A DNA stretch of 64,000 nt from Bacillota bacterium (GTDB lineage Bacteria > Bacillota > Desulfotomaculia > Desulfotomaculales > JBFMEU01): the NCBI GenBank assembly GCA_040753155.1, contig JBFMEU010000001.1, positions 13,273 to 77,272 of the forward strand, written 5' to 3'. The notes beneath the pieces are model-generated. The model was given only the letters and a program-made list of their open reading frames with translations. It had not been told where the DNA came from and did no database searches. The position numbers and the translations under genes were made by a program. Positions 62,681-62,986 of the stretch are shown piece by piece (positions within the stretch are counted from its first letter, which is position 1; each line of letters starts with the position of its first letter).

Positions 62681-62697
62681 GATTATACCTCCGCCTT

Positions 62698-62960
62698 GTT
62701 ACTATTCAGGTATATGGACCATATATCTCATGCTTCGGAAACGCCATGGTTGAACGAGACTTCATTCAGAGGGGGATTCAACCCCCTCTGAATGTTAGCC
62801 GAGTCCATACTGGACTTAACCGCCCTTTGAAACCCGCCGCCTACAGAGGCGGGGGTCTTAGGGCGGATTAGTTCAGTGATAAATCTTCAAATGTTTTCGC
62901 TGGTTTTCTCATTCTGACTCCTGACTCCTGACTCCTGACTCCTGACTCCTGATTAGTTAC
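62698..62960 (-). mobile_element. four-helix-bundle MITE whose mini-ORF interior is replaced by the 134-nt element. (AGGAGTC)5 on the - strand
   Basis: TIRs are TTACTATTCAGG ... CCTGATTAGTTA. CTCCGCCTTG(TTA) is present on both flanks (62689-62701 and 62961-62973). Confidence 0.85.
62751..62884 (+). repeat. 134-nt three-hairpin repeat element nested in the MITE
   Basis: See 36305-36438. Confidence 0.9.
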
Positions 62961-62986
62961 TCCGCCTTGTTATTAACCCGGGCCGC

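Follow-up and report, generated by a model that had tools for sequence, protein, structure and literature searches.

At one end of the window (the whole 64-kb stretch of DNA that was analysed), two arg genes are encoded on the minus strand. The ornithine carbamoyltransferase gene argF is an intact open reading frame of 313 aa at 61739–62680. The identical protein carries the Pfam domains OTCace_N and OTCace, and its homologues show 78–85% identity. The argF start codon occupies 62678–62680 and, as read from the sequence, a Shine–Dalgarno motif GGAGGT (62687–62692, minus strand) lies 6 nt before the ATG. The 3′ part of argD (acetylornithine aminotransferase) forms an open reading frame at 62987–64000, with a TAG stop at 62987–62989, and continues past the window edge; a Pfam Aminotran_3 match was obtained on the same gene in an independent assembly (locus L013). 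A gene caller placed the start of argD inside a PATE, the type of element described below as the inner one. Along argB-argD-argF-argG, all three spacers are occupied by mobile elements, and the genes and their ribosome-binding sites survive.

The argD-argF spacer contains a 13-mer, CTCCGCCTTGTTA, that occurs exactly twice in the window, at 62689–62701 and at 62960–62972. The initial annotation had recognized this repeat on both sides of an insert, and it is real, but the right copy had been placed one base off, at 62961–62973. With at most one mismatch allowed, 0.08 matches were expected, and two were reached in 0 of 100 shuffles. The repeat extends to 15 of 16 bases (CTCCGCCTTGTTAcTA / ...tTA). 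On the minus strand, the left copy lies within AAGGCGGAGGTATAATC-ATG, which comprises the argF Shine–Dalgarno motif and start. Between the two copies we found, in order, an inverted-repeat end, a mini-ORF fragment, a hairpin-rich block of 129 nt, the start of the mini-ORF, 5.6 CTGACTC heptamers and the other inverted-repeat end. Our analysis supports the earlier reading of this arrangement as a nested insertion, with one non-autonomous element inside another.

The outer element and its target-site duplication

The outer non-autonomous element spans 62698–62960 (minus strand, 263 nt) and has the ends GTTACTATTCAGG...CCTGATTAGTTAC. It carries no transposase gene, and its only open reading frame is a remnant of 14 codons. 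The left terminal inverted repeat GTTACTATTCAGG lies at 62698–62710 and the right one, CCTGATTAGTTAC, at 62948–62960; the pair GTTACTATTCAGG / GTAACTA(C/A)TCAGG is found at the argF locus and in more than 55 copies. Near the right end, Tandem Repeats Finder detected an array of 5.6 heptamers (CTGACTC, which is AGGAGTC on the gene-sense strand) at 62914–62952. Two features set the argF copy apart: the heptamer array of 26 nt that normally follows the left inverted repeat is deleted, a loss unique in the genome and absent from the initial annotation, and the right end is a variant with GATTAG for GAGTAG.

The element contains the remnant of a four-helix-bundle gene cassette. The truncated mini-ORF (MRKPAKTFEDLSLN, then a stop; 62868–62912, minus strand), with AGGAG upstream, enters the inner element and stops there. 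Its intact form is represented by the open reading frame at 61244–61555. The distal part of the mini-ORF (…MAFPKHEIYGP; 62714–62749, minus strand) ends at GCCATGG and differs from other copies at 1 to 4 of 36 bases, most often 3. The mini-ORF matches the first ~33 positions (the N-terminus) of the four-helix-bundle family PF05635, and full copies of 111–128 aa are present in the genome.

Copies of the family were collected genome-wide both with BLAST, for which the query was the core of an intact neighbour (61207–61367), and by a search for the two ends. Of the 43 full-core copies with both ends, 31 show a match of at least 7 of 8 bases between the two octamers that border GTTACTATTCAGG...CCTGAGTAGTTAC. 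Pairing of ends gave 90 detections with a perfect 8-bp flanking repeat and 32 with 7 of 8; these 122 detections span 62–682 nt, and some loci were counted on both strands. After removal of double counts, 55 unique loci had a perfect 8-bp duplication, and the ends and duplication at argF match these loci. No match beyond 8 bp was seen in 71 of the 90 perfect detections. The duplicated targets average 28% GC, compared to 52% for the genome.

When this rule, observed directly across the family, is applied to the argF locus, the duplication is TCCGCCTT, with its left copy at 62690–62697 (AAGGCGGA on the minus strand, overlapping the Shine–Dalgarno motif by 3 nt) and its right copy at 62961–62968. 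The native flank GTTA (TAAC in gene sense) at 62969–62972 equals the element's own terminus by chance and so stretches the apparent repeat to 13 nt. The five extra bases of the 13-mer are accounted for as follows: the C, with which the right end closes (…GTTAC), matches a flanking C, and the GTTA, with which the left end opens in nearly all copies, matches four bases of native flank.

The initial annotation had taken all 13 bp as the duplication. That a duplication is present stands, but its length is 8 bp by the family rule. Duplication of the whole of CTCCGCCTTGTTA would place the element proper at 62702–62959, and it has in its favour the identity of 13 of 13 bases (15 of 16 when extended) and an empty site that is compatible with both partitions, each leading to the identical reconstruction. 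We consider it very improbable, since it would make this copy the only one without GTTA/GTTAC as its terminus on that side. Moreover, at 55 loci the duplication is exactly 8 bp long, it seldom runs on by 4 nt or more (4 of 110 flank sides), and TAAC precedes the homologous octamer as native flank in two uninterrupted relatives (L184 and L187). Because the census gives 8 bp and the longer reading removes a terminus common to the other copies, we read the duplication at argF as 8 bp, a length that rests on the family census. The same census rules out an 11-nt duplication, which had been inferred from two copies. Flanks that resemble the terminus were counted on 4 of 110 sides, whereas the rate at control offsets was 0.43% (p = 0.0014); this may reflect a weak target preference or chance, and the ISBst12-like element may prefer targets adjoining a GTTA that mimics its own end.

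The affiliation of the outer element is suggested by its ends. ISDge4 of Deinococcus geothermalis, a member of the ISBst12 group of IS66, is bounded by the terminal inverted repeats GTGACTACTCAGCA and GTAACTGCTCAGCA and makes direct repeats of 8 bp (PMC12898284). The end GTAACTACTCAGGA of the outer element matches the ISDge4 repeat GTAACTGCTCAGCA at 12 of 14 bases. Judged by its ends and duplication, the outer element would thus be a MITE-type element of a known kind, derived from the ISBst12 group (IS66 family). An autonomous partner was not found in this fragmented assembly of 92% completeness; its single DDE gene of the IS66 family (PF03050) lies at the end of contig C9, with no MITE-like ends nearby.

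The uninterrupted site and the argF ribosome-binding site

Relatives were sought by a protein search for ArgF, and contigs with 85% and 84% ArgF identity were used (L184–L188). They have the same gene order, argJ-argB-argD-argF-argG-nitroreductase, and a single, uninterrupted TAACAAAGCGGGGGGATAA(C)-start leader that is collinear with the reconstructed empty site. The leaders are ...TAACAAAGCGGGGGGATAAC-ATG in L184–L186 and ...TAACAAAGCGGGGGGATAATA-TTG in L187 and L188, with one copy of the octamer each and a homologous purine run, GCGGGGGG, at the Shine–Dalgarno position. Removal of the element and one copy of the duplication from the window gives ...TAACAAGGCGGAGGTATAATC-ATG, which aligns without gaps at the insertion point to these leaders; the reconstructed empty junction reads ...TTAATAACAAGGCGGAGGTATAATC... 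The reconstruction yields an argD-argF spacer of 35 nt, not the previously proposed length of about 25 nt.

An uninterrupted single-copy leader, as seen in these relatives, is what a genuine target-site duplication at the argF ribosome-binding site calls for, and the search for an empty site that already carries two repeat copies gave none: the 13-mer is absent from all 175 other fetched loci. An empty allele of the same species was not found, the nearest uninterrupted sites being those of the organisms with 84–85% identical ArgF. The 40 closest species representatives belong to other families of the same order, with at most 81% DNA identity within genes and spacers that are not alignable. In scans of metagenome and genome collections, ArgF identity did not exceed 78% (Desulfofundulus, Desulfovirgula, and Pelotomaculum). 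In more distant relatives with adjacent argD and argF, the spacers range from a 4-nt overlap to ~30 nt and contain a single Shine–Dalgarno motif. An exact-protein look-up returned only one other, independent metagenome assembly, JGI 3300040748 (L013), which carries the same insertion with 2 SNPs.

It had been proposed that the insertion duplicated the argF ribosome-binding region. The insertion did hit the ribosome-binding site; the duplicated part is more limited, as in gene sense only the last three bases (GGA) of AAGGCGGA belong to GGAGGT, so that 3 of the 6 Shine–Dalgarno bases were duplicated. The proximal copy is followed by GGT, which leaves the motif and its 6-nt spacing intact. The distal copy is followed by the G of the element (GTAAC), which gives GGCGGAG, with no start codon within reach. 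Because the proximal copy abuts GGT, the Shine–Dalgarno motif and its spacing are predicted to be regenerated and argF to be still translatable. By this reading of the junction, the duplication itself regenerates the argF ribosome-binding site.

A scan of 62500–63100 revealed no promoter-like site or terminator in the insert. In the predicted fold of the whole-spacer mRNA (z = −4.4), the two inverted ends are base-paired, so that the insert forms a single closed domain. A reading of the insert as structured RNA was rejected after an Rfam search of 61000–63200, in which the best match, sbcD RNA, scored 22 bits (E = 0.15), well below its gathering score of 40. Neither argD nor argF is disrupted, and two assemblies keep the insert, which is most likely a tolerated, near-neutral one.

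The inner element and the loss beside it

The block of 129 nt inside the outer element lies at 62750–62878 on the minus strand, which corresponds to its own top strand (CACTGAAC...CTCGTTCAA). On the plus strand its limits, taken directly from aligned flanks, are TTGAACGAG...GTTCAGTG. They replace the earlier limits of 62751–62884 (134 nt) and are shared by 104 full genomic copies detected by BLAST, 52 of which are identical to the copy at argF. Contig ends stop inside a copy in 31 and 32 cases, which brings the total for the 2.75-Mb genome to ~135. Of 99 copies, 61 have TTTAT as their 5′ flank (position counts T87 T95 T73 A97 T95), and most of the remaining copies have TTNAT or NTTAT. Across the 99 copies, the 3′ flank shows no conservation and is no copy of the 5′ flank, so there is no target-site duplication, and terminal inverted repeats are also lacking. 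The element has three hairpins: its predicted DNA fold (−39.5 kcal/mol, z = −7.8) comprises a long hairpin at the left end, a short central one and a 13-bp hairpin at the right end. In 76 of 104 copies, its top strand coincides with the strand that is richer in G over the surrounding 20 kb, in a draft assembly whose replication origins are unmapped.

IS200/IS605 elements and the ends-only elements called PATEs have no inverted repeats, cause no duplication and insert 3′ of a fixed tetra- or pentanucleotide; they have terminal hairpins, a single-strand mechanism and a bias for the lagging-strand template (PMC7290912). By these features the inner block would be an IS200/IS605-type PATE, again of a known kind. 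An IS200/IS605 copy with the same ends was not found in the genome. Its three Y1 genes are two IS200 tnpA fragments cut by contig ends and one RAYT-like gene, which encodes 264 aa, is the only complete Y1 gene and lies between two PATEs of the same sense, with no PATE ends abutting it.

At argF, the target TTTAT (ATAAA on the plus strand; 62879–62883, minus strand) is retained host sequence directly 5′ of the left end of the PATE, and it contains one breakpoint of a 48-nt deletion, with TAAA as microhomology. The mini-ORF of the family has two tandem TTTAT sites (plus strand GG/ATAAACG/ATAAACC) and a TTTAC further on. Genome-wide, the intact junction CCATGGATAAACGATAA is present in 44 copies; 11 copies have a PATE at the first site, where CCATGG adjoins TTGAACGAGAC, and 2 have one at the second, adjacent TTTAT. 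In the intact family copy at 61207–61499, 52 nt separate GCCATGG from ATCTTC. In the argF copy this place is taken by the 129-nt element and ATAA, which amounts to a net loss of 48 nt. Thus, the net loss from the 52 nt described earlier as replaced is 48 nt, and the structure is better described as an insertion followed by a neighbouring deletion.

The deletion was seen directly to be confined to the argF copy among the 11 that carry a PATE at the hot spot. Only this copy reads GTTCAGTG-ATAA-ATCTTC, and TTCAGTG-ATAAATCTTCA is likewise unique to it. In the other copies with a PATE at the first site and a readable right junction, the 52-nt segment is still there, with one copy (on contig C11) lacking a single 7-nt ATAAACG unit. 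Because the segment persists in these copies, the PATE was added to it and not exchanged for it. A PATE-free family copy with the 48-nt deletion was not found either (0 matches for CCATGGATAAATCTTC). The lost segment lies between TAAA repeats (GG-ATAA/ACG...CCAG-TAA/ATC).

Short direct repeats also appear to be at work in other copies. Four family copies on different backbones read CCATGG-TTGAACG-ATAAAC. These footprints look like the product expected from slippage at AACGA on loss of a PATE, at four independent loci. Deletion between short repeats at PATE borders supports slippage as the mechanism of the 48-nt loss, and, within the model of nested insertion, we infer that simple TAAA slippage was its cause with somewhat better than even confidence.

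The resemblance between the junctions and the ends of the replaced sequence, noticed in the initial annotation, is real, but it comes from the retained target, ATAA, to which the GTGATAA end earlier given to the element partly belongs, and from two short direct repeats, AACGA and TAAA. It had been taken to suggest recombination between related modules, with the 134-nt and 52-nt blocks exchanged as alternative homologous cassettes in the interior of the element. The likeness of TTGAACGA to ATAAACGA, behind which stands the real 5-nt repeat AACGA, and of GTGATAA/ATC to CCAGTAA/ATC speaks for such an exchange; beyond these 4–5 nt, the blocks share no similarity. In addition, the 129-nt block is independent of the outer element: more than 120 of its sites have nothing to do with the MITE, its ends and a TTNAT 5′ flank are constant throughout, and 10 other MITE copies hold it at this very site besides the 52-nt segment, without the deletion. 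We regard an exchange of modules as the least probable reading, and a very improbable one. A more serious alternative, with no part for slippage at TAAA, is that PATEs inserted both 3′ of the distal TTTAC and at the TTTAT hot spot, and that homologous recombination between these two 129-nt copies then removed one of them together with the intervening DNA. The ~135 near-identical copies offer ample homology for this, and TTTAC serves as a target in two or three copies. Furthermore, one family copy is exactly such a product. The end of contig C51 and the start of contig C47 both stop inside a PATE, and the 8 nt outside the element ends are TTTATTTT on both, which is why we take them to be halves of one copy. 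In it, TTTAC adjoins the PATE on the left and CGTTTATCC on the right, 41 nt are missing, and the junctions are of the transposase type with no microhomology, so that two insertions followed by PATE-PATE recombination would be its simplest origin. Such recombination thus occurs in the family and could underlie the 48-nt deletion at argF too. It predicts, however, a G at 62879 (GTAAATC, as on C47 and C3), where both the window and the independent assembly have A (ATAAATC). TTTAT instead of TTTAC at the distal site is found in none of 74–76 family copies, and to arrive at the argF junction one base would have to change as well, or the final 4 nt of homology would have to contain a crossover or undergo mismatch repair. 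On balance, we consider this route unlikely for the argF copy.

We favour, with good confidence, nested insertion plus a neighbouring deletion, in three successive events whose order and enzymes we infer. An element of ~290 nt, a transposase-less derivative of the four-helix-bundle cassette with GTTAC...GTAAC ends, would first have entered the 35-nt spacer 15 nt before the argF start, with duplication of the 8-bp target AAGGCGGA, presumably by a DDE transposase acting in trans. The 129-nt PATE, which would move as single-stranded DNA via a Y1 (HUH) transposase, would then have integrated inside the outer element, 3′ of the TTTAT hot spot (G/ATAAA on the plus strand), without a duplication. Finally, a 48-nt deletion between two TAAA repeats would have removed the segment of the mini-ORF by the left end of the PATE, and a separate 26-nt deletion the left heptamer array. 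The PATE at argF is 100% identical to the consensus, while the backbone of the outer element differs from most copies at 2–3 of 36 bases. As this diverged backbone also has a deleted array and a variant end, the outer element would be the older one and the PATE a recent arrival. No sibling copy with the same composite structure exists in the genome, and there is no sign of arrival as a ready-made composite.

Relation to known systems and meaning

The outer element resembles the MITEs and mobile insertion cassettes of the ISBst12 group (ISDge4; ISBst12 of Geobacillus) in its inverted GTAAC/GTTAC ends of the form GTAACTACTCAGG, in the 8-bp duplication, in the lack of an internal transposase and in the many copies with internal deletions. 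It differs from them in that the family at the argF locus has the remnant of a PF05635 gene (‘23S rRNA intervening sequence protein’) and heptamer arrays in place of a transposase remnant, and in that no matching autonomous IS was found in this assembly. The inner element agrees with PATEs in its lack of inverted ends and duplication, its pentanucleotide target, a hairpin near each end, the orientation bias relative to GC skew and the near identity of its copies. On the other hand, ~135 copies are unusually many for a genome of 2.75 Mb, no IS200/IS605 element sharing its ends was found, and the one Y1 gene that is complete is of the RAYT-like type. That gene, which scores as a ‘REP-associated tyrosine transposase’ and lies between two same-sense 129-nt copies, and the abundance of the intergenic repeat recall the REP/REPIN and RAYT systems. 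However, REPs are palindromes of 20–40 nt that usually flank the RAYT gene directly, whereas the PATE here has 129 nt, three hairpins and a defined 5′ target, and lies 1.2–1.6 kb from the RAYT-like gene with genes between. As a whole, the locus is similar to other nested transposon or MITE insertions in operon spacers, where a younger element sits inside an older one and the co-directional genes are intact; nothing fundamental differs, and what is particular here is that the duplication regenerates the Shine–Dalgarno motif of the downstream gene.

The event at argF is an ordinary one, as both element families are of known kinds, and it has little importance beyond this genome, which is in 121 contigs because of its ~135 PATE copies. 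The locus is an example of how two classes of gene-less elements, one of the DDE type with an 8-bp duplication and the other of the Y1 single-strand type without, are stacked in an essential biosynthetic operon that remains unbroken. More tentatively, rearrangement through short homologies may be concentrated at PATE borders, with Y1 nicking directly after TTTAT as a possible trigger, so that insertion, deletion (argF), replacement (the copy split between C51 and C47) and loss with a TTG footprint (four loci) could form a cycle that erodes and diversifies the four-helix-bundle cassette family; we think this rather doubtful at present. The types of junction found at one hot spot of 60 nt, which range from simple insertions through a neighbouring deletion and a replacement to four footprints, provide a natural record of what happens after a PATE has inserted.

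Mobile elements in the spacers of the arg operon

The argF-argG spacer (window 61162-61738, 577 nt) contains an intact copy of the ISBst12/IS66-like family, with 17.6 heptamers, the target-site duplication (TSD) AACCAAGC and a left end reading CTAAC. The same spacer also carries a 16-mer array of 7.8 units and a 22-mer array of 3 units. It is 12 nt shorter in an independent metagenome assembly (JGI 3300040748, locus L013) than in the window, and the arrays therefore vary within the population. The 8-bp targets of this family, to which the outer element upstream of argF belongs, are AT-rich, with a mean of 28% GC at the 55 loci of the assembly with a perfect TSD compared to 52% for the genome. 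The argF target is atypical (62% GC).

We also observed a PATE, the 129-nt IS200/IS605-type element, between argB and argD, just past the end of the window (contig C1, 77488-77616; positions 3417-3545 of the fetched locus L001). This makes the argB-argD spacer the third arg-operon spacer to be colonised, and the element lies at the same position in L013 (1338-1466). Its TTAAT target includes the TAA stop codon of argB. In the JGI annotation, argD is called from a TTG within the PATE, even though a Shine-Dalgarno sequence (AAGGTGG) and a TTG directly follow the element; the called start is probably an annotation artefact.

In a relative whose ArgF is 85% identical (ENA ERZ9284146, L184), the argD-argF spacer measures 89 nt (2412-2500). 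Upstream of the conserved leader it shows a degenerate 7-nt periodic run (CTGACCA CCGACGA CTGACGA CCAACGA), possibly a remnant of some other element that carried heptamers.

Probable rearrangements at PATE borders

Four family copies of the genome, on different backbones, read CCATGG-TTGAACG-ATAAAC in place of CCATGG-ATAAACG-ATAAAC (C2:59952, C6:4270 on the minus strand, C43:10729 and C82:9846). This variant looks like the footprint left when a PATE was lost imprecisely, through slippage from one AACGA repeat to another. Another copy is split over the end of contig C51 (19440-19568) and the start of C47 (1-204), which we assign to a single copy because the outer flanks of both are TTTATTTT. 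Here, 41 nt between a TTTAC site and a TTTAT site are replaced by a PATE and neither junction shows microhomology. This copy likely arose when two inserted PATEs recombined with each other.

A candidate enzyme and the genomic load of PATE

A Y1 protein of 264 aa encoded on contig C6 (27902-28696; L177 1456-2250) is a candidate for the trans-acting enzyme of PATE. It matches "REP-associated tyrosine transposase" at 80 bits, exactly the cut-off, and its gene is enclosed by two PATE copies of the same sense, spaced 3.1 kb apart; the interval also holds one sirtuin-like and one endonuclease/exonuclease/phosphatase-like gene. Contigs across the genome break within PATEs, with 31 ends lying in the left part of the element and 32 in the right. 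This one 129-nt repeat accounts for much of the fragmentation of the assembly into 121 contigs.
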